DNA of 64,000 bases from a virus (taxonomy: Duplodnaviria; Heunggongvirae; Uroviricota; Caudoviricetes). Each line of letters opens with the position of its first letter. The first letter of the stretch is position 1. This document shows, in pieces, positions 4,635 through 25,446 of the stretch. The notes under the pieces are model-generated. The model saw only the letters and a program-made list of their open reading frames with translations. It had not been told where the DNA came from and made no database searches. Position numbers and translations under genes: made by a program. Where the stretch lies: the IMG/VR virus record IMGVR_UViG_3300037852_000238. The stretch is one strand, 5' to 3'.

Positions 4635-4635
4635 G

Positions 4636-5106: not shown

Positions 5107-6030
5107 ATGGTCTCCTCCCCTTATGCCAAGCGCCAGATTGTCCTGACCTTCAAGCTGGGTGCCGCGCAGGTGGCCGGTAACGTCGCTGGGGGGATCGCGG
5201 GGAGCAACACTGGCGCTGCGTCGGGCTTCAGCCAGATGACTGTCTCCGGTTTGCGCACCTTTGTCCAGGTTAGCCAGGCGATGACGCCGCAGCCGTCGCA
5301 GTGCCAGATCAGGGTCTTCGGGCTCACCCTCGACCAGATCAACACGCTGACCAAGACAGGTTCGGTGTTCCAGGTGCGTAACAACCAGGTCGCGGTGCAG
5401 GCCGGGGACGACCAGTCGGGCCTGGCGACGATCTTCAACGGGATCATCTACTGGGCCGTCCCAGAGTTCGGCGAGCAGCCCGAGACCTCGTTCCTGATCA
5501 AGGCCAACCCCGGCGGTACGATCCAGCTCAAGCCGACGCCGGCGGTCTCGTTCCCCAAGTCGGTCGCGGCCGATGTGGCGCTGAAGCAGATACTGCAGCC
5601 AGCCGGCGTGACGCTGGAAGCGAACGGCACGATGCCGACCCTGGCCAGCCCGTACTTCCCCGGCACGGTCTGGCAGCAGGCCATGCGCGCGCTCGCCGCT
5701 GGCGACCTGTTCGGCTATTACGACGGTGTCGCGCAGAAGCTGGCCGTGTGGCCCAAGACCGGCAACCGCTCCACCTCGCCGATCACGATCTCCCCGGCGA
5801 CGGGCATGATTGGCTACCCGGAATACATGGAGAACCAGATCCGCGTGCGCACGCTGTTTGATCCAAGTTTCCAGAACGCGACGCCGGGGACGCAGATCCA
5901 GGTTCAGAGTCAGTTGACCCCGGCCAGCGGCAAGTTTGTGCTAAACGTGGTGGACTACAACCTTTCCTCCGAGGCGCCTGGTGGCCCCTGGGAGATGGTA
6001 CTGACCGCAGCGCCGACCGGGACCGAATAG
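5107..6030 (+). CDS. phage tail/baseplate hub-like protein (307 aa)
   Basis: Position between tape measure and baseplate V/W/J-like genes. Confidence 0.45.
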   Translation: MVSSPYAKRQIVLTFKLGAAQVAGNVAGGIAGSNTGAASGFSQMTVSGLRTFVQVSQAMTPQPSQCQIRVFGLTLDQINTLTKTGSVFQVRNNQVAVQAGDDQSGLATIFNGIIYWAVPEFGEQPETSFLIKANPGGTIQLKPTPAVSFPKSVAADVALKQILQPAGVTLEANGTMPTLASPYFPGTVWQQAMRALAAGDLFGYYDGVAQKLAVWPKTGNRSTSPITISPATGMIGYPEYMENQIRVRTLFDPSFQNATPGTQIQVQSQLTPASGKFVLNVVDYNLSSEAPGGPWEMVLTAAPTGTE

Positions 6031-6696
6031 GTGTCCGACGCTCTCCAGGGTGCGGCCGACTCGCGCTCGGTCTCGACCGACTTCCACGCCAGCCAGTTCC
6101 ACATCCAGCAGGCGCTGGCACAGATCTCGACCGCGACTTTGGTCAAGGTGGTCAAGGCGCCGTACGACAAGAACGGCGCAGCACTGACGCCCGGCGCGGC
6201 GGTACCGATTGGATTTATTGACGTCCAGCCACTCGTCAATCAACTGGACGGGTTCGGCAACGCGACGCCGCACGGCACGGTCTATCGGCTCTCCTACTAC
6301 CGCCATTCTGGTGGCAACGGCGCGTTTATTACTGACCCGGTTGTTGGCGATATTGGCAAGATGGTCGTCGCCGACCGCGACACTTCGGTCGTGCGCTCGA
6401 CCAACGCGGCGGCTAATCCGGGGTCGCGGCGGAAGTTCAGCAAAGAAGATGGTACATATTTCGGAACGACGCAGGGCGCAACGGCGCCGACGCAGTATTT
6501 CGCGTGGCTTGCAAAGGGCTTCAATATAACTGACGCCTACGGGAACACGATGGTCGGAACCCAGAATGGCGTATTGATCAATGGTTGTCTGATCAATAAG
6601 TCAGGTGACGTTATAACTAAAAATGGCAAGAACCTCGATACGCACATCCATACGGGAGTTACTTCTGGCAACTCTAATAGCGGTCCTCCAGTTTAA
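6031..6696 (+). CDS. baseplate assembly/spike protein (gpV / Mu gp45-like)
   Basis: 221 aa; position immediately before W-like and J-like baseplate genes. Confidence 0.45.
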   Translation: MSDALQGAADSRSVSTDFHASQFHIQQALAQISTATLVKVVKAPYDKNGAALTPGAAVPIGFIDVQPLVNQLDGFGNATPHGTVYRLSYYRHSGGNGAFITDPVVGDIGKMVVADRDTSVVRSTNAAANPGSRRKFSKEDGTYFGTTQGATAPTQYFAWLAKGFNITDAYGNTMVGTQNGVLINGCLINKSGDVITKNGKNLDTHIHTGVTSGNSNSGPPV

Positions 6697-6698
6697 CT

Positions 6699-7127
6699 GT
6701 GGATACTTTACTCCTCGGGCTTAATACTTGGGATTTGACGATTGACGCATCGGCTAATATCGCTGTTGCGACGGAGCCTTACGCGGTCGCCCAGGACGTG
6801 GCTTCGGCGTGCCGGACCTTTCTCGGTGAGCCATGGTATTCCAAAAATTTGGGAATCCCGTACTTCCAACAGATCCTTGGCAAACTGCCGCCGGCATCGC
6901 TGGTCAAGGCACTGGAGGAGGCCACCGCGCTGACCGTCCCCGGCGTCGTGTCAGCGACGTGCCTGCTTACCGCCCTCGCCAGGCGTGCTCTGGGCGGCCA
7001 GATCAAGCTTATGCTCGATGACGGTACGGTGGCCGTGGTGAACGCTTCGACGCTCCAGGGGCCGACGCCGTGGTACGTGACGGCGGTTTCGCCGCAGGCG
7101 GCCGGTAGCCAGGCGGGTGGTCCGTAG
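6699..7127 (+). CDS. baseplate wedge protein (gpW / GP46 / gp25-like)
   Basis: 142 aa; size and position typical of gp25/W family preceding J-like protein. Confidence 0.5.
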   Translation: MDTLLLGLNTWDLTIDASANIAVATEPYAVAQDVASACRTFLGEPWYSKNLGIPYFQQILGKLPPASLVKALEEATALTVPGVVSATCLLTALARRALGGQIKLMLDDGTVAVVNASTLQGPTPWYVTAVSPQAAGSQAGGP

Positions 7128-8599
7128 TGTCTTCGCCGTTTCCGCCCAACACCGCATGCCCTTTCCCCACACTCGGGCCGCAGGGCTTCATAGTCCCCTC
7201 CGAGTCCGCGATCCTGGCCGGTGTGATGGCCGACATCAACGCGGCTTTCGGCAACAACCTAAACCCCGCGCTGACGACGCCGCAGGGGCAGCTCGCGTCG
7301 AGCGAGGCGGCGGTCATCGGCGACTCGTTCGCGGTGTTCGCGTGGTTCTGCAACATGGTCGACCCGGCCTACTCGGTCGGGCGCATGCAGGACGCGATCG
7401 GGCGCATCTACTTCATTAAGCGCATCGCGGGGGAGCCGACCGTCCAGCCTTGCGTCTGCGCGGGGCTGGACGGGACCACGGTGCCGAACGGCGCGCTGGC
7501 GCAGGACCCGGCGGGCAACCTTTGGGTGGCCCAGGCGAACGGCACGATCGCCGCCGGTTCGGTGACGCTGAACTTCGCGTGCGCGACGAATGGTCCGACG
7601 CCGGGGCCGCCGAGCCTTATCATCTACCAGGCGGTGTTCGGCCTGGAGAGCATCACGCCAACCGGCCCCGCGGCGCTCGGCCGGTTGGTCGAGACCCCGG
7701 CGCAGTTCGAAGCGCGCCGGGCCGCGTCCACCGGGATAAACTCGCTGGGGCCGCTTAACGCGATCCTGGCGGCGGTGCTCCAGGTGCCCGGCGTGCTCGA
7801 CGCATTGGCGCTGGAGAACGATAACTCGACGAGCCAGACGGTTGGTGGGGTATTGCTCCTTGCTAATTCGATCTTCATCTCTGTGGTCGGCGGCAGCGAC
7901 GCGGCGGTGGCGTTCGCAATCTGGTCGCGTAAGGCGCCGGGGTGCAATTACTCCGGCAATACGACCGTGGTGATCACCGACCCGAACCCGGCCTACCAGC
8001 CGCCGGCACCGACGTACAACGTCTCTTTTGGACGCCCGCCGCTGGTACCGTTCGCGGTTGTCGTGACCCTGAAAAACAGCTCGCAAGTCCCGTCCGATGC
8101 GTTGACGCTCGTCCAGAACGCGGTGATTGCGGCCTTTGCCGGACTAGACGGCGGACCGCGTGCCAAGATCGGTTCGCTGGTCTACGCCAGCCGCTATTAC
8201 GCGCCGGTCGCCGCGCTCGGGAACACCTACAACGGCACCACTGGGCAGGTTACACCGGGGTGGTCCGCGCCGATCGTTTCCATCCAGCTCGGGGTTGACG
8301 CTGCGGCGGCGACGATCACCGGGACGATAAACGGTACGACGCTCGCGGTCTCCGCGGTCTCGTCCGGCACGGTCGCGGTTGGCGACCTGGTCGAGGGCTC
8401 CGGCGTGGCGCCGGGGACGATCATCAACGCACTGGCCGGCGGCACGGGGTTAACCGGCAACTACCTGGTCAACCTCTCGCAGACGACTGGTACCGCTAGC
8501 CAGACAATGAACCTGACTGCGCTGCTCAACGACGTGCCGCTCAACGCGCTGCAGGCGCCGGTGGTGAGCGCGGCTAATATATACTTGAACCTGGTTTAA
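7127..8599 (+). CDS. baseplate J-like protein
   Basis: 490 aa; follows W-like gene, precedes I-like and fiber genes (Mu/P2 order). Confidence 0.6.
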   Translation: MSSPFPPNTACPFPTLGPQGFIVPSESAILAGVMADINAAFGNNLNPALTTPQGQLASSEAAVIGDSFAVFAWFCNMVDPAYSVGRMQDAIGRIYFIKRIAGEPTVQPCVCAGLDGTTVPNGALAQDPAGNLWVAQANGTIAAGSVTLNFACATNGPTPGPPSLIIYQAVFGLESITPTGPAALGRLVETPAQFEARRAASTGINSLGPLNAILAAVLQVPGVLDALALENDNSTSQTVGGVLLLANSIFISVVGGSDAAVAFAIWSRKAPGCNYSGNTTVVITDPNPAYQPPAPTYNVSFGRPPLVPFAVVVTLKNSSQVPSDALTLVQNAVIAAFAGLDGGPRAKIGSLVYASRYYAPVAALGNTYNGTTGQVTPGWSAPIVSIQLGVDAAAATITGTINGTTLAVSAVSSGTVAVGDLVEGSGVAPGTIINALAGGTGLTGNYLVNLSQTTGTASQTMNLTALLNDVPLNALQAPVVSAANIYLNLV

Positions 8600-8601
8600 C
8601 A

Positions 8602-9174
8602 GTGCTCGACGTTGATAAGACGGTAATCAGCCAGTACAGCAACAGTCCTGTACTGACGCAGTTAATTGAAAATTTTAATACTTGTGTCGATCCGACGGTA
8701 GATCTACAACAGTTCTACGATTTAATCTGGAACATAGACACCGCACAGGGGGTCGGTCTCGACATTTGGGGACGAATTGTGGGAATCGGCCGAGTTTTAA
8801 CGGTAACCAGCGGCGTTTACTTAGGCATGACCGGCGCTGGCGGCGCCAGCGGCGAGACCTTCAACACCGGCATCTTCTACTCCGGCCAGACGATCACCAG
8901 CAACTACCGGCTGACCGACGAGGCTTACCGCCTGCTGATCCTGGCCAAGGCGGCGGCCAACATCTCGAACGGTTCGGTCCAGTCGATCAACGCGATCCTG
9001 ATGAACCTTTTCCCCAATCGTGGCAACTGCTACGTGACCGATAATGGCAACATGAGCCTGACTTACACCTTCCAGTTCCCGCTCCAGCCGTTCGAGGTAG
9101 CGATCATCAACACTTCCGGTGTGCTGCCCAAGCCGGCCGGCGTCGCCGCGGGCATCAGCTACCCGATACTCTGA
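8602..9174 (+). CDS. tail protein I-like (Mu gp48 / DUF2313-like)
   Basis: 190 aa; between J-like gene and tail fiber. Confidence 0.45.
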   Translation: MLDVDKTVISQYSNSPVLTQLIENFNTCVDPTVDLQQFYDLIWNIDTAQGVGLDIWGRIVGIGRVLTVTSGVYLGMTGAGGASGETFNTGIFYSGQTITSNYRLTDEAYRLLILAKAAANISNGSVQSINAILMNLFPNRGNCYVTDNGNMSLTYTFQFPLQPFEVAIINTSGVLPKPAGVAAGISYPIL

Positions 9175-10841
9175 TGAACGACTCCCAAATTCCCGCTAAA
9201 TTTGCGGCGATCTTCGCTAACGCCGCCCCGGCCGGGAACGTCACTAGCCCGTTCCCGGTCACGGCGCAATCCGGCGGCCTGGCTTCCCTAAACACCGGCT
9301 TCACGACCGTCAACTTCACGCCGATCGCGGGCGGTGGCGTGCCGCCCTGGGGCAAGGACTTCAACGGCCTGTTGCAGCTCCTGACCGCCTGGGACCAGTG
9401 GTTCCAGGCCGGCGGCCCTATCCCGTACGACGGCGCTTTCCAGACCGCGATCGGCGGCTACCCGAAGAACGCGATCGTCGCTTCGGCCGTCACCTCGGGC
9501 CTGTGGTGGCGCTCGACGGTCGAGAACAACGCGACCAACCCGGACACCGGCGGCGCCGGCTGGGTCACCTGGCCGATCACTTATCCGCTGACCGCGCACG
9601 CTGTCGTAGTGGGCGAGGGCACCAACCCGCTGGCCGCGGTTGGCCCCGGCGCGCAGGGCGTGCCGCTGCTCGGCAACGGCGCCAGTAGTGACCCACAGTT
9701 CGCCGCGCTCAACCTGTCTGGCGGCGCGGCGGTCGTAACTGGTGACCTACCGATCGCGAACGGTGGCACCAACGCTACGTCTTTCGTCTCCGGTGGCGTG
9801 GTCTTCTACGACGGCACGCGGCTGACCCAGAATGCGCCGCTGCTGTTCTGGTCGGTCGGTTCCGGCTTCCTTGGGGTGGGCACCAACGCGCCGACCGCGA
9901 CGCTGCACGTCGCCGGAACCGCGCTGGTGACGGGGACCTTCACGGCGAATAGTACGGCTACGTTCGGTAGCTCCTTGAGCGTCGCCGGCGCCGCCGCTTT
10001 TAGCTCCACGCTTTCGGTCGGTGCGTCGGTAACGTTTAATAGCTCCTTGAGCGTCGCTGGCGCGGCCGTTTTTAGCAGTACCATCTCGGTCGCGTCGTCG
10101 GCCACCCTTAATGGTTCCTTGACGGTCGCCGGTGCGGCCAGCTTGAACTCCACTCTCAACGTCGCCGGCGCGGCGGCGTTGAATTCCACGCTAAGCGTCA
10201 CCGGCGCGACGACGCTCAGCCAGAGCCTGCTGGTCGGAAACGGTGCCACGATTACTGGCGTCGTCGGCTCAGGTTATGGGTTGGAGGTCCTCTCCGGTGG
10301 CATATTCGCCACTGGTAACGTCAACTACGTCGGCACCACGACTGGTTTCGGTCTCGGCGCGATCGGCCCGAGCCCGGTGGTCGAGTGGCAGAACGGCGTC
10401 GGCGGCAACACTTGGGTCGTTCAGCACAATAACGCCGCGTCGCTGACCTTTTCGTTCAATACCCTGGGCAAAGCGACGCTTGACCAGTTCGGTAATTTGA
10501 ACATCCAGGGCACGCTGACCCAGGCCTCGGATCGCGCGCTGAAGGACCGGATCGAACTTCTCGACCCAGTGACGGACGTGATCGCGGCGCTACGCCCGGT
10601 GCGCTGCGTCTACCGCGACGAGCCGGACCGCGAGCGCTGGTCGTTGGTGGCGCAGGAGATCCCCGCCGGCCTGGCGCACGCGGTGCGGCCGATGGAGCAG
10701 TGGCGCGTGGTGCGCGGCGAGGAGCCGGAGCGGCAGGAGGATGTGCTGGGTGTGACCTACAACGATATCGTCGTGGCGCTAGTCCGCGAGGTTCAAGACC
10801 TGCGGCGCGAGCTCGACGCGCTACGGAAAATCGCCGCATGA
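9174..10841 (+). CDS. tail fiber protein with C-terminal intramolecular chaperone (peptidase S74-like) domain
   Basis: 12-aa Ala/Ser/Thr-rich shaft repeats; C-terminus DRALKDRIELLDP…WSLVAQEI…VTYNDIVVALVREVQDLRRELDALR matches the auto-cleaving chaperone domain of fibers/endosialidases. Confidence 0.8.
   Translation: MNDSQIPAKFAAIFANAAPAGNVTSPFPVTAQSGGLASLNTGFTTVNFTPIAGGGVPPWGKDFNGLLQLLTAWDQWFQAGGPIPYDGAFQTAIGGYPKNAIVASAVTSGLWWRSTVENNATNPDTGGAGWVTWPITYPLTAHAVVVGEGTNPLAAVGPGAQGVPLLGNGASSDPQFAALNLSGGAAVVTGDLPIANGGTNATSFVSGGVVFYDGTRLTQNAPLLFWSVGSGFLGVGTNAPTATLHVAGTALVTGTFTANSTATFGSSLSVAGAAAFSSTLSVGASVTFNSSLSVAGAAVFSSTISVASSATLNGSLTVAGAASLNSTLNVAGAAALNSTLSVTGATTLSQSLLVGNGATITGVVGSGYGLEVLSGGIFATGNVNYVGTTTGFGLGAIGPSPVVEWQNGVGGNTWVVQHNNAASLTFSFNTLGKATLDQFGNLNIQGTLTQASDRALKDRIELLDPVTDVIAALRPVRCVYRDEPDRERWSLVAQEIPAGLAHAVRPMEQWRVVRGEEPERQEDVLGVTYNDIVVALVREVQDLRRELDALRKIAA
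9960..10211 (+). repeat. about seven tandem 36-bp (12-aa) coding repeats (N/S-S-T-L-S-V-A-G-A-A-x-F/L) in fiber shaft
   Basis: Direct reading of translated repeats SSLSVAGAAAF / SSTLSVGASVTF / NSSLSVAGAAVF …. Confidence 0.6.
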
Positions 10842-12322
10842 GACGCCTTCTCCTCGCCGCCGCGTTCCTTGTCCTTGCCACTGCCCCGGCCGCGGCGCAG
10901 TCCACGCCGCAGTTTACGGCGGGCGGCCAGGTCTTCGGCTTTTTCGCGCCGAGCTGGAACCAGTTCTTCGGCGCGAAGGTCGACGTGAACGGCGGCACGG
11001 CGCACAACCTGACGCTGACCGGCACGGTCAACGGTGCCAACGCGCAGCTGATCCTGCCGACGTTCTCCTCGATATCTGCGACGCAGAACCTGACGACCTT
11101 GCCGCTCGGCCTGACCGGGTGGATCATCCAGGCCGGCGCGCAGGACGGCGTCATCGCGCGCGCCGAGCTCGACTCGTTCGGCAACACGGGGGTTTTCACC
11201 TGCCGCCGGGCGGACGGGACGAACCTCAACAAGACCGTGTTGGTCAACGGCGACGAGATCTGCTCGATCAACGCCTGGGGCTATAACGGTTCGGCCAGCA
11301 ACGTGGGTTACACTTCCGGTGGCCGCATCAGTTTCTTCGCGACCGGCACGTGGTCGCTGACAAGCACGCCGCTGGAGATCCGTTTCTCGACGACGCCGGT
11401 GGGTAGCGTCACGTTGGTTGACCGTTTCCACGTCGGCCCGGACGGCGGGTTCTACGCCGACGGCGTGACCGGCGGCAGCAAGGGCGCTGGCACCGGGAAC
11501 TTCGCCGGGCTGTACATCAACAACGTCGCGCTCTCGGCGATAAGCACTCCGGTCTCGGGGGCGAACGGCGGAACCGGGATCGCGAACACCGGCTCGACGC
11601 TGAGCCTGAACGGCGCGCACAACTACGGCTTTACGGCCAGCGTCGATACCACTGTGACGCTCCCCGCCGGTTCGTCGTCGACCTTAGCGAGCCTCGCCGG
11701 CACGGAGGCGTTAACTAATAAAACCATAAACGGCCTCACGATCACGACCTCGACCGGTACGTTGACGGTTGCCAACGGTAAGGTCGCGACGATCAACAAC
11801 ACGCTGACCTTCACGGGCACCGACGGCAGCAGCGTCGCCTTCGGCGCGGGTGGGACGATCGGCGGCGTAGGCTACGCCAGCAATGGGCAAGTCCCCGGCG
11901 TTGCCTCTAACACCGCTGCAACCGCCGGCAACTTCGGGGAGATCATCAAATCGGTAGTTACTTCTGGATCGGCGGTTCCCCTAGTAAGCTCTACATCAAA
12001 GACTGTAACATCAATTACATTAACTGCCGGTGAGTGGAATATCACAGGATGTGTATATATTTTGCCCGCAGCTACAACTTCTACTACAACAGAAGCCGTT
12101 TCAATCGGAGATGCCGATAATACTTTTATTACCACTCCTGGACGATACGCCGAACTTACTACATCCGCTGTTGTAACAGGTGGGGTTGAAGACACCTATT
12201 GTGTGCCTGCATATTACCTGTCTCTTTCTGGGAATTCTACTAAATACCTGATTGCTAATGCGGCCTTCTCCGTAAGTACCGCGTCGGCATTCGGTTATAT
12301 ACAAGCTGTTAGGATACACTAA
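10838..12322 (+). CDS. second fiber-like protein with N-terminal Sec-type signal peptide and low-GC C-terminal domain
   Basis: ATGA overlap with fiber 1; MRRLLLAAAFLVLATAPAAAQ signal-like N-terminus; Gly/Thr/Asn-rich beta-helix-like repeats; last ~400 nt markedly AT-rich. Confidence 0.65.
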   Translation: MRRLLLAAAFLVLATAPAAAQSTPQFTAGGQVFGFFAPSWNQFFGAKVDVNGGTAHNLTLTGTVNGANAQLILPTFSSISATQNLTTLPLGLTGWIIQAGAQDGVIARAELDSFGNTGVFTCRRADGTNLNKTVLVNGDEICSINAWGYNGSASNVGYTSGGRISFFATGTWSLTSTPLEIRFSTTPVGSVTLVDRFHVGPDGGFYADGVTGGSKGAGTGNFAGLYINNVALSAISTPVSGANGGTGIANTGSTLSLNGAHNYGFTASVDTTVTLPAGSSSTLASLAGTEALTNKTINGLTITTSTGTLTVANGKVATINNTLTFTGTDGSSVAFGAGGTIGGVGYASNGQVPGVASNTAATAGNFGEIIKSVVTSGSAVPLVSSTSKTVTSITLTAGEWNITGCVYILPAATTSTTTEAVSIGDADNTFITTPGRYAELTTSAVVTGGVEDTYCVPAYYLSLSGNSTKYLIANAAFSVSTASAFGYIQAVRIH

Positions 12323-12324
12323 CA

Positions 12325-12771
12325 ATGGCAATCATTCCCTTGCAAAACGTGACCGCTGACTTCGTTACCGGCACTGACGCAACGAACGGGAACACACTGG
12401 TTATCTTCTGGGGGCCGATGAACGGCGGCGATGAAGGGGAACCTATCTCAGTTTATGCCTTCGACGATCCCTCATGGCAGTTTACCGGAGCGCCAGAAGG
12501 CGGGCAACTGTCGAACCCGAACGTGCCTGTCTCTCCCGACCGCACAGTGACCCTGCTAGGATCGAATGATGGCCACTGCTGGGGGAAGGTCTTTACCCTC
12601 CCCGCCGATCCGGCCGGCATGGCCGCGCGCACTGGCGATCCGCTCCGTGTAGGCTATCCCGATGGCAAGTATATCAGCATCAAGCCCGTCGTGGGCGGCG
12701 CCGTGAATTTAGTTGCTCCCGACTGCGGACTGTTGCTCTTCTGCGCTAAGTCATATGGATCAAGGAGCTAA
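12325..12771 (+). CDS. hypothetical protein (148 aa)
   Basis: ORF immediately after fiber gene. Confidence 0.4.
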   Translation: MAIIPLQNVTADFVTGTDATNGNTLVIFWGPMNGGDEGEPISVYAFDDPSWQFTGAPEGGQLSNPNVPVSPDRTVTLLGSNDGHCWGKVFTLPADPAGMAARTGDPLRVGYPDGKYISIKPVVGGAVNLVAPDCGLLLFCAKSYGSRS

Positions 12772-12772
12772 G

Positions 12773-13279
12773 ATGTTCATAAGGCTAGCGACGACCGCCG
12801 CCATCCTCGTCTTCCTCGCCTTCCCCGCCCTCGCCGACCCTGTCAAGATTTCCGTCGTGCAGGCGCAGGAGGTCGTCGCCGCGGTGAGTGACCTAGACCG
12901 CGTCGAGCGGGTCAAGAAGGTTGACGGGAAAGACGTGACCGTCCACGGCGCGGACCTCACCGTGGCGGTGCGCACGCGGCTGGCGATCGACGTGACGCGG
13001 CTCAAGCCGCTGGTTGATGCCTACGCGGAGGCGCACAACAAGCGCCTGATGGAGCTGAGCGACGGCGGCAAGCGCGAGGTCAAGCCGGATTCACCCGATG
13101 GGATCAAGCTGCAGTACGAGTCCCTGGCCCAGATGAACCGGCGGGACCCTGTCGAGCTGCTGCGCGTCACCCTGGCGGACCTCAGCATGGACGTCAACCC
13201 GATCCCACCGGAGACGCTAGCGCGATTGGCGCCGCTGATTTCCGACCTCGACTCGGTCGAGCCGCAGGCGAAGCAGTAG
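12773..13279 (+). CDS. secreted hypothetical protein (signal peptide MFIRLATTAAILVFLAFPALA)
   Basis: ATG inside listed ORF 12713..13279; hydrophobic N-terminus with AxA site. Confidence 0.45.
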   Translation: MFIRLATTAAILVFLAFPALADPVKISVVQAQEVVAAVSDLDRVERVKKVDGKDVTVHGADLTVAVRTRLAIDVTRLKPLVDAYAEAHNKRLMELSDGGKREVKPDSPDGIKLQYESLAQMNRRDPVELLRVTLADLSMDVNPIPPETLARLAPLISDLDSVEPQAKQ

Positions 13280-13280
13280 C

Positions 13281-13958
13281 GTGACCTTTCGCCCCGACGT
13301 ACTGGCCGAGTTCCTGCGCTCGCCGCTGCCGCCTTCGGCGGTGGCATTCGTGATGGATATTGCATCGGGCGAGATCAACTCGGCCCAGGGCTTCGAGACG
13401 CTGGCCGGCGGTGGCGCGATGACCGCCGCGATGTGCGGCGGCACGCTGTTCGCGCGCTACCCCGTCTGGGACGGCATCCCCGACTCGGCTGGCACCAGCC
13501 ACGGCGCCGGGGCGTTCCAGTGGGAGCGCCGTACCGCGGCGAGCATCACTGCCGGCACCGGCGTCACGACCTTCTACTCGCAGGACCAGATCAACGGCTC
13601 GTGGTGGTGGGCGAAGCTGTGCTACCACGCCGCTACCGAGCGCGACCTCGGCGCGGACCTGGCGGCCGGCTACTTCGACTCGCCGGGGCACGGCCCTGCT
13701 GGCCTCGGCAACCAGTGGGACCGTGGCAAGGTCGCAGGGCCGGGCAGCGACCGCTATGCCGGGTTCCTGGCGCAGGTTAATCAGGGACGTACGACGCCGG
13801 CTTCGCCAGCGCCGCCCGTCGTGCCGCTGACGCCGATCCAGGTCATCCTCGCCGGGGCGAACTTCAAGGACGGCGTGCGCGCGTTTCAGGCAGCGCGCGG
13901 GCTCGGGGTGGACGGCGTGATCGGCCCACACACGCTCGCGGCGCTGAACGCGGGGTGA
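13281..13958 (+). CDS. putative endolysin with C-terminal peptidoglycan-binding (PG_binding_1-like) domain
   Basis: C-terminal FKDGVRAFQAARGLGVDGVIGPHTLAALNAG motif; precedes membrane-protein genes (lysis cassette). Confidence 0.6.
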   Translation: MTFRPDVLAEFLRSPLPPSAVAFVMDIASGEINSAQGFETLAGGGAMTAAMCGGTLFARYPVWDGIPDSAGTSHGAGAFQWERRTAASITAGTGVTTFYSQDQINGSWWWAKLCYHAATERDLGADLAAGYFDSPGHGPAGLGNQWDRGKVAGPGSDRYAGFLAQVNQGRTTPASPAPPVVPLTPIQVILAGANFKDGVRAFQAARGLGVDGVIGPHTLAALNAG

Positions 13959-14233
13959 CCTGGTTCTTCCTTTCTGGCGGCGCTTTCATGGCGTTCGCTG
14001 CGGTCGTCACGCTGCTGATCGCGGCTTCGCTTATCGCGCCGTTCTTCAACGCCGAGCCCGAGCCGCCTCCGCCCGCGCCGGGGCCGCGGCTTGACACGCT
14101 GCCGCGGCGCAACTTCGTCCTTCACCCGCGGACGCCGTATCATCGGCACGTCCTGGTCGAGCGGACGCGCATCGTGCGGTATCGCGGCCAGTACTACGTC
14201 GAGGTCACCGAGTTCGACTATGAGATTGCGTAG
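13955..14233 (+). CDS. single-TM membrane protein (holin/lysis-associated candidate)
   Basis: GTGA overlap with endolysin stop; one hydrophobic helix then charged tail. Confidence 0.35.
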   Translation: MTWFFLSGGAFMAFAAVVTLLIAASLIAPFFNAEPEPPPPAPGPRLDTLPRRNFVLHPRTPYHRHVLVERTRIVRYRGQYYVEVTEFDYEIA

Positions 14234-14242
14234 GAGTCACTT

Positions 14243-14407
14243 ATGTCGCTTGGTCTAACACTCGTCATTATTCTCGTTCTCGCGCTGTTCGGTGGGTTCT
14301 TTCCCATCGGCGGCAACTACGGGTATGGATTCGGGGGAGGGGGCATCGGGGTTGTCGGCATCATCCTGATCATCCTCGTTGTGCTATTGCTCACGGGACG
14401 GTTGTAG
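14243..14407 (+). CDS. DUF3309-like small membrane protein (55 aa, two TM helices around a Gly-rich loop)
   Basis: AGGAG RBS 6 nt upstream; hand translation MSLGLTLVIILVLALFGGFFPIGGNYGYGFGGGGIGVVGIILIILVVLLLTGRL; not in ORF track (<60 aa). Confidence 0.5.
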   Translation: MSLGLTLVIILVLALFGGFFPIGGNYGYGFGGGGIGVVGIILIILVVLLLTGRL

Positions 14408-14829
14408 TGACTGGTCGCGTCTCATTACTCGCTCTGCTTTTTGTCGCCGGCTGTGCGCAGACGCCGGCGACCGCACCGCCGCAGGCGATGCCGCTGCTCC
14501 CGCTGCCGGCTCCGGCCAGGGCACCCATCGTCGAGACGCCTTCCGCGTGCCCACTCGGCCAGGTACTGCGCCGCGTTCGTGTTCGCCATGGCACTTACCA
14601 GACCGCCAGGTGCATCCCTCTCGATCGCCAGGTGCGGGGCGCGGTGCCGCTAGAGGACCCGATCAACGTCGCGTGCAAGGAGCTGGTCGTCGCGGAGCGT
14701 GGGAAGCCTCCTCTCGATAAGCCCGCGCCCGCGGTGGTGTTCTGCGACGACACCAAGCGCTACCACTCGGGCGACCCCGAGGCGGATGCGCGCTGGATAC
14801 ACGGTGAGACCAAGGCACTATCGCGGTAG
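14407..14829 (+). CDS. lipoprotein (lipobox LFVAGC); o-spanin candidate
   Basis: N-terminal signal plus Cys lipobox; inside the lysis cassette. Confidence 0.55.
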   Translation: MTGRVSLLALLFVAGCAQTPATAPPQAMPLLPLPAPARAPIVETPSACPLGQVLRRVRVRHGTYQTARCIPLDRQVRGAVPLEDPINVACKELVVAERGKPPLDKPAPAVVFCDDTKRYHSGDPEADARWIHGETKALSR

Positions 14830-14832
14830 ACG

Positions 14833-15153
14833 ATGGCCGACGCTCCGCGCATCAACGGCTCCGGCGGGTGGGCTATCCCGTTAGCCTCGCTCGTAGTAAC
14901 GGTCCTTGCGCTGATGTTTGCCATGTACGAGTCCTCCAACTCCACTTCAGCTAGCTCGGCGACGGCCTTTCAGAATCTCCAGTCCAGGGTGGCGGTCCTG
15001 GAGAATGAGATCGCCCGCTCGAACCAGGACGCCGGCCAGGATCGCTCGGAATACAGGCAGGGATTCAACGATATCTCCAAGAGATTCGAGTCCGTCCAGA
15101 CAGCAATCGCCGACTTGTATACGAAACTGGCGAGCAAGGCTGACCGCAAATGA
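14833..15153 (+). CDS. N-terminal TM plus coiled-coil protein; i-spanin-like candidate
   Basis: TM helix residues ~14-32, then heptad-like QNLQSRVAVLENEIARSNQ. Confidence 0.4.
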   Translation: MADAPRINGSGGWAIPLASLVVTVLALMFAMYESSNSTSASSATAFQNLQSRVAVLENEIARSNQDAGQDRSEYRQGFNDISKRFESVQTAIADLYTKLASKADRK

Positions 15154-15605
15154 ACTGGAATTGGCCGCTTATCATAAGCTTCGGGGCGGTGATACTTCTG
15201 CAGATCGTCTCGTATTGGTACGACCGGCGACAGTACTCGGTACTTAACAAGCAATTTCAAGAGATGGCGGATCGGGTCAGCATCATTAACGCGGGTTATA
15301 CGCCAATGTTCACGGCGTTACTCAAGGTCGTCGTCCCGGAATTGACGCATTTTCACACGCCCGAAGCCGATGATCTCCTGGCGCGGATCGCCACTCTCAA
15401 AGACGACGAGATGGATCGACTTGAAGTGCTCATGCGCGAGCGGGAGAGCGTGGTGGACCCCCAAATTTCTCCGAAAGAACGCGCGACCGCGCGAGCGCTG
15501 CCGTGGATTGCCCGGCGTGCCCGCGAGGAGGCCCAGGTCGGCCCGGACGTTCGCGTCGTCGTGCAGATGGTCTCGACTTCGTTGGAGGTGCAGGAGCCCA
15601 AGTGA
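15150..15605 (+). CDS. membrane-anchored hypothetical protein (151 aa)
   Basis: N-terminal TM helix; ATGA-coupled to preceding gene. Confidence 0.4.
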   Translation: MNWNWPLIISFGAVILLQIVSYWYDRRQYSVLNKQFQEMADRVSIINAGYTPMFTALLKVVVPELTHFHTPEADDLLARIATLKDDEMDRLEVLMRERESVVDPQISPKERATARALPWIARRAREEAQVGPDVRVVVQMVSTSLEVQEPK

Positions 15606-16081
15606 ACCGCCCAGACTCCCGAAAGATAGTCCTCCCCAACTTCGCCAAGGTTGACGCGACGCTGTGGCGCGGCGGCCGGCCGGACGAGGCCGGCGCGCGC
15701 TGGCTGGTCGCCGAGGGCGTACGCACGGTCGTCAACCTGGAGTGGGAGCAGGAGGACGACGACGTGTTCGGTTACGCGCCCGCGGTTCGCTTCGTGCGGG
15801 TCAAAGATTTTGAGCCGCTGCCCTGGTTCGCGCCGTCGGTGTCGGATCATCACGCCCGGCGGTTTCTCGCCGTCGTGCGCTCCGGTTCTACGCCGGTCTA
15901 CGTCCACTGCCGCTCGGGCGAGAACCGCACCGGCGTCATGGTCGCGGCGTACCAGCTGATCGTGAAGGGCCTGCTGCTCGACGACGTGCTAGATGAGTTT
16001 GACCGCTTCCGCGGCTTCTGGGCGTGGGGTGATTTTCGCTACATCCGCTCGCTCGACGCGCGCCGGTTGAGCTTCCGGTGA
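15602..16081 (+). CDS. protein-tyrosine / dual-specificity phosphatase family protein (CX5R active site)
   Basis: GTG start overlapping previous stop; VHCRSGENRTG = HCx5R P-loop; upstream DxxN-like acid region. Confidence 0.7.
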   Translation: MNRPDSRKIVLPNFAKVDATLWRGGRPDEAGARWLVAEGVRTVVNLEWEQEDDDVFGYAPAVRFVRVKDFEPLPWFAPSVSDHHARRFLAVVRSGSTPVYVHCRSGENRTGVMVAAYQLIVKGLLLDDVLDEFDRFRGFWAWGDFRYIRSLDARRLSFR

Positions 16082-16254
16082 CCCGCCGACCCCGCTACTT
16101 CACGCGCGCCCTCGGCGCCGTGGCGTTGCTATTGGCCGTGGGGAACGGCATCCAGAAGTGCTCGGCCGATTTGGTGGCCGACGCCGACGCCGCGACGGCG
16201 GAGTACTGGCGGCTCTGGGTCGTCGGCGACGTGGCTAAGTGCCCGCGGCCCTAG
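16078..16254 (+). CDS. small hypothetical membrane/secreted protein (58 aa)
   Basis: GTGA overlap with phosphatase stop; hydrophobic core ALGAVALLLAVG. Confidence 0.25.
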   Translation: MTRRPRYFTRALGAVALLLAVGNGIQKCSADLVADADAATAEYWRLWVVGDVAKCPRP

Positions 16255-19733: not shown

Positions 19734-19765
19734 CGCCCCGCCTCGCGCGGGGCGTTTTGCGTTTT
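19734..19765 (+). terminator. rho-independent terminator (8-bp GC stem, TTTTGCGTTTT tail) at convergence point
   Basis: CGCCCCGC-ctcgc-GCGGGGCG followed by T-run; lies between convergent genes. Confidence 0.7.
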
Positions 19766-20796
19766 CACTTCCACCCGTTAGGCTGATCCACGACCACCGT
19801 CGAGCCGGCGCGGTCGACCGCGACCGGCACCTCGATCGGGTCACCCAGCGCCACCTTGACGGCCGCGCGGCGCTCGGGCTCGACGACGAGCAGAAAGAAT
19901 CCCCCGCCGCCCGCACCGAGCAGTTTTCCACCGACCGCGCCCGCGGCCCGCGCGCGCCCGTACAGCGCGTCTACGGCGGCGGGCGCGACGCCGGGGGCCA
20001 GCCCGCGCTTAACGCGCCAGGCGGCGTCCAGGAGCGCCCCCAGCTCCGTCACGGGGCATCGGGGGTCGGTCAGGATCGCCTCGGCGTCGTTAACCATCGC
20101 CGCGAGTGCGGCCAGCCCACGCGCATTCTCGTTGATGCGCGCGATCTTCACCGCTTCGACCTCGGCCGCGACCCGCGTCGTGCCGGTGTAGACCAGCATC
20201 AGGTGGGCTAGTATTTCAACCTTACGGCTTGGAGAAATCTCTAACGGATGGATTCCGATAATGTTCGGCTTAAAGCCGGCCTCGATCTCCTCCGGCGTCG
20301 CTCCGAACTGTAACCGATTGAAACCTCCGAACGCCGCGAAGACCTGATCCTGCGACCCCACTGCCTCGCCGATCAGCGCCTGCTCCACGTGGATCGCGTC
20401 GCTCGCCAGCTCCTCCGGCGAGAGCCGGCGGCCGTCCAGCGTCGCCGCGGCGTTGAGCAGCCCCACGGTGAAGGCCGACGACGAGCCCATCCCACTCATG
20501 TGCGGGATGTCGCCGGCGTGGTGGAGCTCGTAGCCCTGGCCGGGCGCGCCGACCGCGCGCAGCACCTCGCGGGCGGCGGGGTGCGCGATCTCGTCGACCT
20601 CGCGCACCAGCTCGGTGCGCGACCACACGATGCGGTGGCGGTGAGCGAAGTAGGGTGGCAGGCGGCGCAGCGAGATCCAGCAGTATTGCGCGAGTGCGAA
20701 GCCGAGCGTGGCGCCGCCGTGGGCGCGGTAGTGCGCGGGCAGGTCGGAGCCGCCGCCGGCGAGGCTGATGCGGTGCGGTGTTCGGGTGATGATCAA
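19765..20796 (-). CDS. hddA: GHMP-family sugar kinase, D-glycero-alpha-D-manno-heptose 7-phosphate kinase (HddA)-like
   Basis: GHMP motif PHMSGMGSSSAF; Gly-rich C-terminal GGKLLGAGGGGF; size 343 aa. Confidence 0.75.
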   Translation of the reverse strand: MIITRTPHRISLAGGGSDLPAHYRAHGGATLGFALAQYCWISLRRLPPYFAHRHRIVWSRTELVREVDEIAHPAAREVLRAVGAPGQGYELHHAGDIPHMSGMGSSSAFTVGLLNAAATLDGRRLSPEELASDAIHVEQALIGEAVGSQDQVFAAFGGFNRLQFGATPEEIEAGFKPNIIGIHPLEISPSRKVEILAHLMLVYTGTTRVAAEVEAVKIARINENARGLAALAAMVNDAEAILTDPRCPVTELGALLDAAWRVKRGLAPGVAPAAVDALYGRARAAGAVGGKLLGAGGGGFFLLVVEPERRAAVKVALGDPIEVPVAVDRAGSTVVVDQPNGWK

Positions 20797-20801
20797 GGTA
20801 T

Positions 20802-21023
20802 TTAACGCTGATAAATTGGGTTCTTTTTCTCAAACTCTTTACGGCGAGCAACGCAAATGCGAACTCGCTCAACGATCCTTAAATCAAAAGGCGCCACGCT
20901 CGTTGGATCAGAGTTAAATTCGGCGTTGATTAAATCGAGTAAGATGTGGGCTTCTTCGTCATTTTTCCAGCTATCTTCCATTTCTCGCTGCCGCTTGCTA
21001 CTCATTCTTGGAGTTTTATCCAT
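20802..21023 (-). CDS. small low-GC hypothetical ORF inserted between hddA-like and hddC-like genes
   Basis: AT-rich island (approx 20800-21020) inside GC-rich operon; 73-aa ORF. Confidence 0.3.
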   Translation of the reverse strand: MDKTPRMSSKRQREMEDSWKNDEEAHILLDLINAEFNSDPTSVAPFDLRIVERVRICVARRKEFEKKNPIYQR

Positions 21024-21028
21024 CTAAG

Positions 21029-21616
21029 TTATGGTGCCTCCCGCTCCGCCCGCGCCAGACCCTCCGGCGAACCGATATCCCAGAACGCGCGGCAGCAGCC
21101 CACCGGCAGCGCGCCCCATGTGGGCTGCCGCCGGTCCAGCCACGCGCGCGGTAGCAGGTGCACGCCAGACTCGACGTGGGCCAACCCTACCGGGGCCACC
21201 GCGACCAACCCGACGGGCACGCGCTGGGAGGTGTAGACCGTCAGCAGGGTCCGCCAGTCCAGATCCACCAGCGTGTCGCCGTTGACGACGGCGACGGGGT
21301 CGGAGAGTTTGGAGAATGCCTCTGCGATGCTGTTCAGCGCGTGTGGGATCGAGCGCGGCTCGGGCTCCTCCCAGTTTACCGTCGGCATCGAGGTTATCAT
21401 CCTCGGAAGCGCGCGCCGGATTTGCTCCGCCCCATAGCCCAACGCCAGCACTGCGCACTGGAACCCGGCCGCGGCGAGCTGGCGCAGTAGTGCCTCGGCG
21501 AACGGCCGGTCGCGGAAGGGCGCGAGGAACTTCGGCACGCCGGGTGGTAATGCCGGCGCTAGGCGCGTGCCTTGGCCGCCGCAGAGGATTATCACATCTA
21601 GGTCAGCGGGGGTCAC
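21029..21616 (-). CDS. sugar-1-phosphate nucleotidyltransferase (heptose-1-P guanylyltransferase HddC-like)
   Basis: N-terminal IILCGGQGTRLAP…PKFL signature of NTP-transferase family; GTG start overlapping next gene. Confidence 0.7.
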   Translation of the reverse strand: MTPADLDVIILCGGQGTRLAPALPPGVPKFLAPFRDRPFAEALLRQLAAAGFQCAVLALGYGAEQIRRALPRMITSMPTVNWEEPEPRSIPHALNSIAEAFSKLSDPVAVVNGDTLVDLDWRTLLTVYTSQRVPVGLVAVAPVGLAHVESGVHLLPRAWLDRRQPTWGALPVGCCRAFWDIGSPEGLARAEREAP

Positions 21617-21903
21617 GGCTTGACCAGCTTGACGACCTTCTCCCGCTCGGGTTCGTCGACCCAGTTCAGGAAGGCTCGGACCCCGGCGTAATCGTCGAAG
21701 ATCTTGGCCGGCGCGCCCTCGTCGCCGGGCTTCAGCATCAGTAACCGGAGATCCACGACGTAGCAGCCGAACTTGTTCGGTTCGCCCGTGCTCGGGTTCA
21801 GCGCGCGGACCAGGTAAAGGTGGCGGGTCTGGCGCCGCTCGAAGCGCGCGAGCTGCCAGTAGTCGTCCGGCATATCGAGCATCAGGTAGAGGCCGATCAT
21901 CGG
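21613..21903 (-). CDS. hypothetical protein (about 96 aa; internal ATG start chosen)
   Basis: C-terminal portion of listed ORF is protein-like; the N-terminal extension is not. Confidence 0.35.
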   Translation of the reverse strand, partial: PMIGLYLMLDMPDDYWQLARFERRQTRHLYLVRALNPSTGEPNKFGCYVVDLRLLMLKPGDEGAPAKIFDDYAGVRAFLNWVDEPEREKVVKLVKP

Positions 21904-23406
21904 AGCAAGTCCCTGTCTAAAGTGTAGGAAAGCATCTTCTCCACCTCCGCCACGGCGCCGGGGCCGAACCGCGCGCGGAGCATCGCGCGGTACTCGGGGG
22001 AGGAGAAGTAAGTGACGTGGGCGGCGTCGCGGAAGCGGAGGATGTCGGCGGCCGAGAGGTGTGCGTTGCGCAGCGGCACCGTGTGCCGGTTGTGCTGCGA
22101 GTACGCCGCCCAGCTCGGTGGCAGATCCTCCGGCCGCTCGCGCGCGACCCGGTCGTAGAGCGGCGAGCCGGGGTACGGCATGGCGCAGTAGAAGTTGGCC
22201 CACTCCGCGTTGAGGCGCTGGGCCAGCGCAAGCGTCTCGCGCATCGACGCTTCGGTGTCGTCGGGCAGCCCGAAGATGTAATTGCCGATAACGTTAATGT
22301 CGGCGCGGCGGATCGCCAACACGGTCGTCTCAATCCCGAGGTTGCCGTCGCCGCGTAAGGCTTTGTTGGTTCCAGCGCGGACCTCGCTCGACCCCGACTC
22401 GATCCCGAGCGCCAGCCAACGGATGCCGGCCGCGCGCATCAGCGGCAGATCCTCCTCGCGCACGGTATCGGTGCGGGCGTAGGCCCAGACGTTGATGTCG
22501 TTACCAATACCAGAATCGACTAGCCATTGGCAGACCGCACGATAATGATTTTTTGATAAAACAAAAAGTTCGTCTACGATCTTGAATGTCCGTACACCAC
22601 GTTCGCGGTAGAGCCAGACCATCTCCTCGACGACCGCCGCGGGCGAGCGGCGGCGGTAGCGGTTCGTGTGCTGAAAGACGTTGATCATGCAGAAGTCGCA
22701 CGTGTAACTGCATCCGAGTGACGTATACACCGCCGCGTAGGGCGACGACCGCGGCCAACCGTCCAGGCACTGCCAGTTGTGGGCGCGGTAACGCGATGGC
22801 TCGGGCAGTAGGTCCCACGTGCGGCCGTGGAGGTCGCGGTCAAGGTCAAGTGGTGGAGCGAGGGGGTTGCGAACGATCTCGGCGCTCCGCCAAACCAGAC
22901 CGGGGATCTCGCCGAGTTTGAAGATGTAGCTACCTCTTTCGGGGTCATCTTTCGAGGGTGACTCCCCTAACCGTAAAAGGGCATCTAGGGTTATCGGTCC
23001 TTCACCGTCGATGACAAAATCACATGGCTCCTCGCGAAGTGTTTGTTCGGGTAGGGCGGAAGGGTGGTTGCCGAGAAGGATTACTTTCGAATGGTCCTTA
23101 TGATTTAAACCTATTTCCCAAGCCACCGCCCGCGCACCCGGTAGAGCCTGCGTGCTGGCGCTGGGCTGGTGGCCGTGGACACAGATCGCAACGACCCGCG
23201 GCCGTAGGAGCGCGACCTTGGCAGCGATCTCCGCCGCGCTCAACCCTTCCACCTCCTGGTCGACGATTGTGACCGACCACCCGCGGTCGCGCAGGTAGCC
23301 GGCGATCAACCGGGGCCATAGTGGTGGCTCGCGCGCGACGAGCTCACCGCCGAGCGGGCCGTATATGCCGTGGACGCCTCCGGGATGTATCAGAACGATA
23401 TCAGTC
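21897..23406 (-). CDS. B12-binding domain radical SAM protein (class B, likely C-methyltransferase)
   Basis: N-terminal B12-binding-like Rossmann segment; CSYTCDFC = CX3CX2C radical SAM motif; GTG start VTDIVLIHPGG. Confidence 0.75.
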
Positions 23407-24190
23407 ACACGAACATCTCCTTCTCCACCGCTGCGCAGATCGTGTGGCCGATCGCCAGGTGGATCTCCTGGATGACCGGCGTCTCGTCGCTCGGGGCGCG
23501 GATCAGGACGGCGACATGCTCGGAGTGCTCCCGTAGGACGTGGCCGCCGTCCGCGCCGGTCATCGCAATCACCTTCATCCCGCGCGCGAAGGCGGTGTCG
23601 ATCGACCGCAAGACGTTCGGGCTCCTGCCCGACGTGCTTATCACCACTAGAACGTCGCCGGAGTTTCCCAGGCCCGCTATCCACCGGGCGAAGGTCCAGT
23701 CGTACCCGTAGTCGTTCCCGAGTGCGGTCAAGGTCGCCGGCTCGGTCAGCGCGATCGCCGCCAGCGGCGCCCGATCCCGCGCGTAGCGCTCGACGAGCTC
23801 GGCCGCCAGGTGCGCCGCCAGTGCCGCGGAGCCGCCGTTGCCGCAGAGCAAGACCTTTCCGCCAGCGCGGAGAGCGGTGGTGATTAGCTGGGCCGCGTTG
23901 TCTACGGAAGTGAGGTAATCGACGTCGACTGCGAGGCGATTGAATGCGGTCATAAAGTCGTTAATATGCTTATTCATGCCTTCAGGTACCTCACGCTTTA
24001 GTGCATCAATTATAGCGCCCGCAGCTTTACCGACCTCGGTTGAGCGGTCTAAATTGGCGGTCATCCGTAATACGAACTCGGCGTTGCCGCCGAGCAATAT
24101 TCGGCGTATCTGTTCCTTCTTGCTCATCCGTTGAAAGTCTTCGTACATCGCTTCTTCAAGGCTCGGAAACGGCATCACACATTCCCCCAC
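23405..24190 (-). CDS. gmhA: SIS-domain phosphoheptose isomerase (GmhA-like); possible shorter start at MNKHI
   Basis: GGKVLLCGNGGSAA…ISTSGRS…GMKVIAMTG SIS motifs; AT-rich N-terminal extension. Confidence 0.7.
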   Translation of the reverse strand: MGECVMPFPSLEEAMYEDFQRMSKKEQIRRILLGGNAEFVLRMTANLDRSTEVGKAAGAIIDALKREVPEGMNKHINDFMTAFNRLAVDVDYLTSVDNAAQLITTALRAGGKVLLCGNGGSAALAAHLAAELVERYARDRAPLAAIALTEPATLTALGNDYGYDWTFARWIAGLGNSGDVLVVISTSGRSPNVLRSIDTAFARGMKVIAMTGADGGHVLREHSEHVAVLIRAPSDETPVIQEIHLAIGHTICAAVEKEMFV

Positions 24191-25413: not shown

Positions 25414-25446
25414 AAAGGTCGCCGGGTGAGTCGTTTCAGTTCAACC

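Follow-up and report, generated by a model that had tools for sequence, protein, structure and literature searches.

The 64,000-nucleotide stretch of viral DNA analysed here (IMG/VR record IMGVR_UViG_3300037852_000238; hereafter, the window) comes from an uncultured myovirus of ~103 kb and carries, at 13281-15605 on the plus strand, six closely packed genes that very probably make up a phage lysis module. The third of these genes encodes a 54-residue membrane peptide of the DUF3309 family, and our favoured explanation for the region as a whole, which we hold tentatively and place a little below an even chance, is that a captured DUF3309 peptide acts in this module at the holin step of lysis. 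A first-pass annotation of the window had also proposed a lysis cassette at this position. All six of the plus-strand open reading frames (ORFs) it had placed there were present, and its assignment to lysis held, as the first gene encodes an endolysin of the lambda lysozyme type and the lipoprotein and the transmembrane/coiled-coil protein encoded downstream have features of spanins. As a whole, the cassette is an ordinary kind of system, with an endolysin, a spanin-like pair and small membrane proteins. What is unusual in it is the DUF3309 component, the inverted order of the spanin-like genes and an orphan endolysin combining a GH104 domain with a PG_binding_1 domain. The six genes are:

13281-13958, plus strand: endolysin gene, 225 residues
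13955-14233, plus strand: gene for a single-pass membrane protein, 92 residues (81 residues in the public gene call, which starts at the ATG at 13988)
14243-14407, plus strand: DUF3309 peptide gene, 54 residues
14407-14829, plus strand: lipoprotein gene, candidate for the outer-membrane spanin subunit (o-spanin), 140 residues
14833-15153, plus strand: transmembrane/coiled-coil protein gene, candidate for the inner-membrane spanin subunit (i-spanin), 106 residues
15150-15605, plus strand: gene for a single-pass membrane protein, 151 residues

The junctions between these genes, read from the sequence, were in 5' to 3' order a 4-nucleotide (nt) overlap, a 9-nt gap, a 1-nt overlap, a 3-nt gap and a 4-nt overlap, and the earlier description of the genes as start/stop-coupled was essentially right. 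Hydropathy analyses identified one transmembrane segment in each of the 92-, 106- and 151-residue proteins and two in the 54-residue peptide. The small transmembrane proteins of the 64-kb window cluster at 13955-15605, and no holin-like protein was seen elsewhere in the window. The cassette had also been called atypical in composition, a description that was not borne out: the G+C content of its genes (0.56-0.71) and the G+C content at their third codon positions (0.71-0.88) were within the range of the other genes of the phage, the tail genes having a G+C content of 0.56-0.67. A scan for promoters and terminators gave no signal above shuffled expectation.

Searches of Pfam and PHROGs revealed only the C-terminal PG_binding_1 domain of the endolysin (residues 192-222, E-value 6.8e-07), the peptidoglycan-binding domain that had been recognised at first pass, and a word-indexed protein database held no relatives of the N-terminal 185 residues. 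An exhaustive HMMER search identified 54 distant homologues of the N-terminal domain, and a profile built from 38 homologues matched lambda lysozyme (Protein Data Bank (PDB) entries 1AM7/3D3D) with an E-value of 3e-15. Glu31 of the endolysin is invariant, or nearly so, in this family and aligns with the catalytic Glu of the "WSEG" motif of lambda R. An AlphaFold2 model based on the 38-sequence alignment had a mean predicted confidence (pLDDT) of 85.9, and its closest fold in the PDB was 1AM7 (E-value 8e-04, probability 1.00, target TM-score 0.60). The protein thus has an N-terminal GH104 (lambda-R-type) lytic transglycosylase domain at about residues 1-170, a proline-rich linker and the C-terminal PG_binding_1 domain. 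Neither a signal-anchor-release (SAR) sequence nor a signal sequence was found in it, and no 19-residue window exceeded the hydropathy threshold. By its sequence and the model, the 225-residue protein is a soluble, canonical, holin-dependent lytic transglycosylase of the GH104 type. As an endolysin with no export signal, it would be able to reach the cell wall only after a holin had opened the inner membrane.

The resemblance to the lambda R endolysin (GH104; 1AM7, 3D3D) therefore comprises the catalytic fold, the aligned catalytic Glu and a soluble, cytoplasmic and holin-dependent mode of action. The two enzymes differ in that they share only ~13-17% identity in the structural alignment, that the window enzyme has in addition PG_binding_1 at its C-terminus and a short insertion (residues ~47-55), and that its gene lies 5', not 3', of the candidate holin genes. 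The closer relatives of the window endolysin (41-51% identity) were free-standing proteins of 160-210 residues encoded adjacent to small transmembrane proteins, and some relatives of its catalytic domain were joined to tape-measure-like proteins or to long structural ones (P0053; L030).

The 54-residue peptide matched the DUF3309 profile (PF11752) with an E-value of 5.3e-08 and 33.3 bits, above the gathering score of 22.3, its residues 3-54 covering positions 1-50 of the 50 in the profile. The kinship suggested at first pass was thereby confirmed, and the peptide is a true member of DUF3309, if a diverged copy; the sequence quoted for it then was exact, the length given, 55 residues, being one too many. 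It has two transmembrane helices with a Gly/Tyr-rich loop between them (hydrophobic segments 1-27 and 26-54). An AGGAG sequence is located 6 nt 5' of its ATG, its stop codon overlaps the start of the lipoprotein gene by 1 nt, and its gene starts 285 nt past the endolysin stop codon, with one gene between.

Almost all of the 47 other database homologues of the peptide were 54 residues long and ~65-72% identical to it, the longer entries being upstream extensions of the gene call. In an alignment with 29 homologues the peptide aligned without gaps to those of 54 residues, and five of its residues were changed (S20F, G21P, R22I, G25N and H32G), each at a site with a conservation of 90% or more among the chromosomal peptides. 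The loss of S20, G21, R22, G25 and H32 is divergence inside DUF3309 and not exclusion from it, and the peptide retains both helices and the YGYGFG core, the loop Arg and His being gone. No PHROG family corresponds to DUF3309. The composition of the peptide defeats BLAST-based searches, likely through low-complexity filtering: a tblastn search of INPHARED with the peptide gave no match, nor did tblastn-confirmed searches for related loci with the peptide or its alignment, which likely reflects that filtering and is not evidence of absence, and a blastn search with a phage DUF3309 gene gave spurious short matches only.

A DNA-pattern scan of the GTDB species genomes for the canonical loop identified at least 120 loci, and among the matches listed almost all were from Alphaproteobacteria (Hyphomicrobiales, Rhodobacterales, Rhodospirillales, Acetobacterales and Sphingomonadales). 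The earlier statement that DUF3309 is chromosomal in alphaproteobacteria thus holds for the canonical subfamily, which is overwhelmingly alphaproteobacterial. The chromosomal genes had CsbD, a HisKA_2 kinase, PRC, a Gly-zipper lipoprotein and DUF3185 as neighbours, which suggests a stress-regulon-like setting. The searchable literature gave no function for DUF3309, in agreement with the first-pass annotation; it was mentioned only in a table of transcriptome data and among the proteins detected by proteomics in Asaia. The window copy therefore has the length and architecture of the chromosomal peptides and ~70% identity to them, and differs from them in its phage neighbourhood, in place of CsbD, HisKA_2 kinase, PRC and Gly-zipper genes, and in the absence of the near-invariant loop residues listed above.

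The two genes immediately downstream of the peptide gene encode, on balance, a two-component spanin pair. The 140-residue product of the first is a lipoprotein, as had been proposed, with the lipobox VAGC and Cys16, and its mature part of 125 residues has ten Pro within the first 35 residues and four further Cys. The lipobox agrees with the o-spanin consensus [LVI][ASTVI][GAS]C reported by Kongari et al. 2018 (PMC6139136). The gene for the 106-residue protein begins 3 nt after the lipoprotein stop codon, and its product has a type II topology, with an N-terminal transmembrane segment at about residues 13-32 and Arg6 on the N-side. This is followed by two heptad-repeat helices (46-60 and 78-99) with a linker between them, in which 83-88% of the residues at a/d positions are LIVFM, as against 0-7% at the others. 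The combined periplasmic length of the candidate pair is 199 residues, and two-component spanins have combined periplasmic lengths of 62-300 residues (PMC6139136).

The pair shares with two-component spanins (Rz/Rz1 of lambda; the "separated" PseT.3/PseT.2 of T4) the adjacency of two proteins, one a lipobox protein whose mature N-terminus is rich in Pro, the other of type II topology and containing a pair of coiled-coil helices. It differs from them in that the o-spanin candidate is the longer partner, the i-spanin being longer than the o-spanin in 489 of 528 systems (PMC6139136), and in having no sequence similarity to any spanin family. No homologues of the lipoprotein were found in Pfam, PHROGs, NCBIfam or cultured phages, and the 106-residue protein had only weak matches of a coiled-coil type in the family libraries. 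No lipobox ORF was present inside or downstream of 14833-15153.

Among the other three membrane proteins, of 92, 54 and 151 residues, we infer that at least one is the holin. The 92-residue protein, a holin candidate, has an N-terminal transmembrane segment followed by a Pro-rich linker, and ends in a charged domain of ~45 residues that is rich in His, Arg and Tyr; it had only weak, sub-threshold matches in Pfam and none in PHROGs, NCBIfam or INPHARED. The 151-residue protein, a candidate for a holin, an antiholin or an accessory protein, has its transmembrane segment at residues 5-24, and the DRRQ that follows indicates that the C-terminal domain of ~125 residues is probably cytoplasmic. No family in Pfam, PHROGs or NCBIfam and no protein of a cultured phage matched it. 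None of the 54-residue peptide and the 92-, 106- and 151-residue proteins matched a holin family in Pfam, PHROGs or NCBIfam, and no membrane protein of the window matched the holin family of Pam3 gp28 (PF23987, Phage_holin_10). Likewise, tblastn searches of the cultured phages in INPHARED with the 92-, 140-, 106- and 151-residue proteins and one neighbouring coiled-coil protein gave no match.

DUF3309 is also present in other phages. A scan of IMG/VR by DNA pattern, followed by filtering with a hidden Markov model (HMM), gave HMM-confirmed DUF3309 peptides on 17 contigs, 16 of them distinct, with G+C contents of 0.37-0.67. Their neighbouring genes were annotated with crude ORF calls of our own and limited family searches, and were phage genes, such as those for portal, prohead protease, Mu-F, cement protein, Pam3 gp33-like protein, DNA polymerase and helicase. 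In five of the 16 loci the DUF3309 gene was on the same strand as an endolysin gene and no more than ~3.3 kb from it, a proportion that exceeded the 12-15% expected by chance only marginally (binomial p 0.03-0.08), several of the loci being from related phages. The endolysins or endolysin-like proteins concerned, and the position of the DUF3309 gene, were:

L079: Phage_lysozyme (GH24) with PG_binding_1; DUF3309 1.1 kb downstream, after genes for a lipoprotein and a 173-residue membrane protein
L080/L087: GH25 with no signal peptide; DUF3309 is the first gene of the endolysin operon, two genes upstream
L083: GH19, matching PDB endolysins with an E-value of 9e-16; DUF3309 1.15 kb downstream, after a transmembrane/coiled-coil protein gene
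L085: GH19 homologous to that of L083, followed by a holin of the Pam3 gp28 family (E-value 1.2e-08); DUF3309 after genes for a lipoprotein, a protein with two transmembrane segments and two small signal/transmembrane proteins
L076: a PG_binding_1 protein; DUF3309 3 kb downstream

Lipobox proteins and transmembrane/coiled-coil proteins were the neighbours of DUF3309 in these loci. Membrane or lipobox proteins constituted 35% of the genes within three positions of DUF3309, as compared with 17% elsewhere in the loci (Fisher p 0.002, from crude ORF calls and non-independent loci). Transmembrane/coiled-coil proteins, or coiled-coil proteins anchored at their C-terminus, flanked DUF3309 in L066, L073, L056, L076, L079, L083 and L085. 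The loop Arg lost from the window peptide was kept in two of the 16 other phage peptides and in 27 of the 29 peptides of the chromosomal set, both samples being biased by how they were collected. The window phage has Pam3-like baseplate and gp34-like genes, and L085, a related myophage contig, has the Pam3 gp28 holin in its lysis region as well as a DUF3309 gene; the membrane proteins of the window do not match that holin family.

Minor features were also observed. Coiled-coil proteins of 200-310 residues with a C-terminal transmembrane anchor form an unannotated family that adjoins DUF3309 in five phage loci and is also present in the lysis region of a relative of the window endolysin; an N-terminal "PDPTxLTT" motif is common to three of its members (L066, L085 and L026). 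The genes of this family are:

L066, 3530-4144
L085, 5262-5948
L076, 7085-7840
L056, 1108-2046, minus strand
L079, 12641-13258
L026, 984-1598

Second small peptides with two transmembrane segments and Trp/Gly/Tyr-rich loops (e.g., WWRxGSxWxYGWGG) were found beside or near DUF3309 in L076 (6539-6730), L085 (4194-4421) and L072 (4236-4565, minus strand). These look like tandem DUF3309-like paralogues, although Pfam does not recognise them. In L079, a 79-residue protein encoded just 5' of the lysozyme (8830-9066) has an Acb2/Tad1 hairpin domain (E-value 7e-19), that of a family of anti-CBASS/Thoeris sponges. Lastly, a His/Arg/Tyr-rich segment such as that of the 92-residue protein recurs in the gene directly upstream, or two genes upstream, of a phage DUF3309 gene (e.g., HPRTPYHRH, YERSHYRHHHHHRHHRE and HHHRHHHHHHRR). 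The recurrence may be due to chance, or the segment may be a partner of the His/Tyr-rich DUF3309 loop. The genes with this segment are:

window, 13955-14233
L085, 4789-4968
L051, 3445-3960
L083, 9498-9746, minus strand

The tight packing seen in the cassette is not limited to its six genes; it extends upstream to the tail-fibre genes and downstream to a phosphatase gene that overlaps the gene for the 151-residue protein by 4 nt and is translationally coupled to it. This phosphatase, probably an accessory gene product, had further matches to related phosphatase families and to the polymorphic-toxin-type Tc-R-P family. The features in question are:

15602-16081, plus strand: dual-specificity/tyrosine phosphatase-like gene (PF22741, PTP-NADK, E-value 7.8e-17)
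16078-16254: 58-codon ORF, 3' of the phosphatase gene

A direct role of the DUF3309 peptide in lysis is, taken by itself, quite possible but short of probable, and the holin, antiholin or depolarising role first suggested for it is one that we infer. In the mechanism we envisage, the phage would have acquired the peptide from among the small membrane peptides that alphaproteobacterial chromosomes encode beside stress-type genes, and the peptide would after capture have lost the conserved polar loop residues Arg22 and His32. It would form a helical hairpin in the inner membrane and work at the holin step, where it might oligomerise and itself permeabilise or depolarise the membrane or, more likely, might partner with or modulate the single-pass protein encoded at 13955-14233, as in cassettes with two holin-like proteins. 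A partner or modulator is likelier than a sole holin because the peptide has no charged tail and because DUF3309 occurs together with a recognised holin in L085. The lipoprotein and the transmembrane/coiled-coil protein would serve as the outer- and inner-membrane halves of the spanin.

Cassettes with two holin-like proteins are known in some phages, for example gp4/gp5 of mycobacteriophage Ms6, and class II holins and pinholins are exemplified by S68 of phage 21. With these systems the window cassette has in common a small inner-membrane protein with two transmembrane segments encoded beside a second small transmembrane protein, as well as glycine-rich segments. The peptide differs from class II holins and pinholins in its length of 54 residues, in having no charged cytoplasmic tail, in its first transmembrane segment, which is strongly hydrophobic and not SAR-like, and in having no sequence relationship to them.

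Several observations weigh against a captured DUF3309 peptide acting at the holin step. The peptide has one charged residue in its entire length, ends in TGRL without the charged C-terminal tail typical of holins, and is among the cassette products without a holin-family match in Pfam, PHROGs or NCBIfam. The proximity of DUF3309 to endolysin genes in other phages was, as described, only marginally above chance; L085 has, besides DUF3309, a recognised Pam3 gp28-family holin, and in L087 a classical-looking 77-residue protein with two transmembrane segments and a strongly basic tail is encoded 3.8 kb away on the opposite strand. Elsewhere DUF3309 adjoins portal and protease genes (L051/L072), DNA polymerase and helicase genes (L053/L064) or host-like transporters (L084). 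The candidate spanin genes are in inverted order relative to known two-component systems, with the lipoprotein gene 5' of the i-spanin candidate, and the latter has no Cys, while the lipoprotein has four periplasmic Cys. The presence of the phosphatase gene indicates that the operon also tolerates cargo unrelated to lysis. Moreover, a canonical holin could be encoded in the ~40 kb of the phage genome beyond the 64-kb window, and the phage has no close DNA or protein relative in INPHARED, IMG/VR, the word-indexed protein database or the GTDB genomes.

The main rival explanation, which we consider unlikely though by no means remote, is that the phage took the peptide gene from a host as a "moron" or accessory gene, located in a variable region near the lysis genes and having a role outside lysis such as the stabilising or modifying of the host membrane during infection, stress mimicry or superinfection exclusion, and that the holin is the 92- or 151-residue protein or is encoded outside the window. 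The location of chromosomal homologues beside CsbD, HisKA_2 kinase, PRC and Gly-zipper lipoprotein genes is consistent with this, as are the phage DUF3309 copies in head and replication modules, the separate Pam3 gp28-type holin of L085, the phosphatase gene in the same operon and the absence of a holin-like charged tail from the peptide. It is opposed by the recurrence of DUF3309 on the same strand near endolysins of four classes and near spanin-like genes, by the enrichment of membrane proteins among its neighbours and by the overlap of the peptide stop codon with the start of the lipoprotein gene. Lambda bor and lom are morons that adjoin lysis or tail genes, and morons usually have a promoter and terminator of their own. 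The window gene resembles those of the bor/lom type in being a small host-like membrane gene beside lysis genes in a late operon; it differs from them in its translational linkage to its neighbours and in the lack of a promoter or terminator signal above chance. A related explanation is that the gene is a decaying or neutral passenger, captured from the host and drifting without a role, as the changes at five near-invariant positions (S20F, G21P, R22I, G25N and H32G) might indicate. We regard this as very improbable: the ORF is intact and full length, both transmembrane helices and the YGYGFG core are kept, there is a good Shine-Dalgarno site and a translational link to the next gene, the loop Arg has also been lost in 14 of the 16 other phage copies, all of which are full-length, and phage genomes rarely retain useless genes.

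It is also improbable, if less so than a passenger gene, that the peptide is the sole holin, i.e., a very small class-II-like holin with two transmembrane segments that releases the soluble endolysin. The endolysin does need a holin, no known holin family is represented in the cassette, and the peptide has two transmembrane segments and is encoded 285 nt downstream of the endolysin stop codon; in L087, DUF3309 heads the GH25 endolysin operon and is the only transmembrane protein encoded on that strand within ~5 kb. However, the peptide, with its 54 residues, single charged residue and lack of a cytoplasmic tail, does not resemble characterised holins. Two further transmembrane proteins of the cassette are equally well or better placed, and L085 has a separate, recognised holin. 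Least probable among the explanations considered is that the region is not a lysis cassette at all: the 225-residue protein would be an enzyme associated with the virion that pierces the cell wall, and the membrane proteins would be accessory factors for the tail fibres or the host surface. The fusions noted above between some catalytic-domain relatives and tape-measure-like or long structural proteins, a cyanophage baseplate protein as the third-best fold match and the position of the genes directly 3' of the tail fibres would fit such a role. An endolysin is nonetheless much likelier than a virion lysin, as the protein is small and free-standing with PG_binding_1 at its end, the tape measure has an SLT domain of its own, and the genes for a lipoprotein and a type II coiled-coil protein follow. 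Furthermore, the closer relatives of the enzyme (41-51% identity) are likewise free-standing, with 160-210 residues, and are encoded beside small transmembrane proteins, and related temperate myoviruses have a holin and an endolysin right after the tail fibres.

A wider proposal can be made for the family, although we find it doubtful: that DUF3309 is a recurrent and hitherto unrecognised component of phage lysis modules, a minimal holin-like or holin-modulating family with two transmembrane segments found with endolysins of at least four catalytic classes, and that the chromosomal copies, which number in the hundreds, are related permeabilising or depolarising peptides. DUF3309 is widespread in proteobacteria, and its link to lysis modules provides a first concrete and cheaply testable hypothesis for it, namely membrane permeabilisation or the control of holin timing. 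Should the link hold, it would point to a class of very small peptides currently missed by gene callers and phage family libraries; should it be merely positional, the region would be an ordinary lysis cassette that has captured a gene from a host.

The genome from which the window derives was found on metagenomic contigs of 103,149 bp (Logan SRR12659391_33279) and 104,458 bp (JGI), both of which encode the identical peptide and endolysin. In record coordinates the Logan contig (103,149 bp) ends before the window does, and together these data suggest that the assemblies are circular permutations of a single, complete phage genome of ~103 kb. Its host is probably an alphaproteobacterium. No DNA similarity to the cultured phages of INPHARED was detected, a search of JGI metagenomes for relatives returned three short contigs only, and no tRNA genes were found. 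The contractile-tail module lies upstream of the cassette. In Burkholderia phage phiE131 and other related small or temperate myoviruses, holin and endolysin genes lie shortly 3' of the tail fibres. The other principal parts of the window are:

1416-12322: contractile-tail module, with a tape measure with an SLT domain, a Pam3 gp18-like plug, an E217 gp41-like hub, a gpV apex, Baseplate_J (gpJ), a DUF2612 wedge and two tail fibres
downstream part of the window: sugar-nucleotide genes, class II ribonucleotide reductase, thymidylate synthase (ThyA), a Pam3 gp34-like protein and an SNF2 helicase

Two orphan genes on the plus strand (12325-12771 and 12773-13279) are situated between the last tail fibre and the endolysin, and neither had a family match; the 168-residue product of one of them has a cleavable-looking signal peptide (MFIRLATTAAILVFLAFPALADP). 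The sugar-nucleotide genes belong to a sugar-nucleotide/modification block on the minus strand (19765-26589) that comprises a GHMP kinase, a nucleotidyltransferase, a B12-binding radical SAM protein, a SIS protein, an epimerase and a DegT aminotransferase, and this block could have a role in the modification of DNA or of surface glycans.

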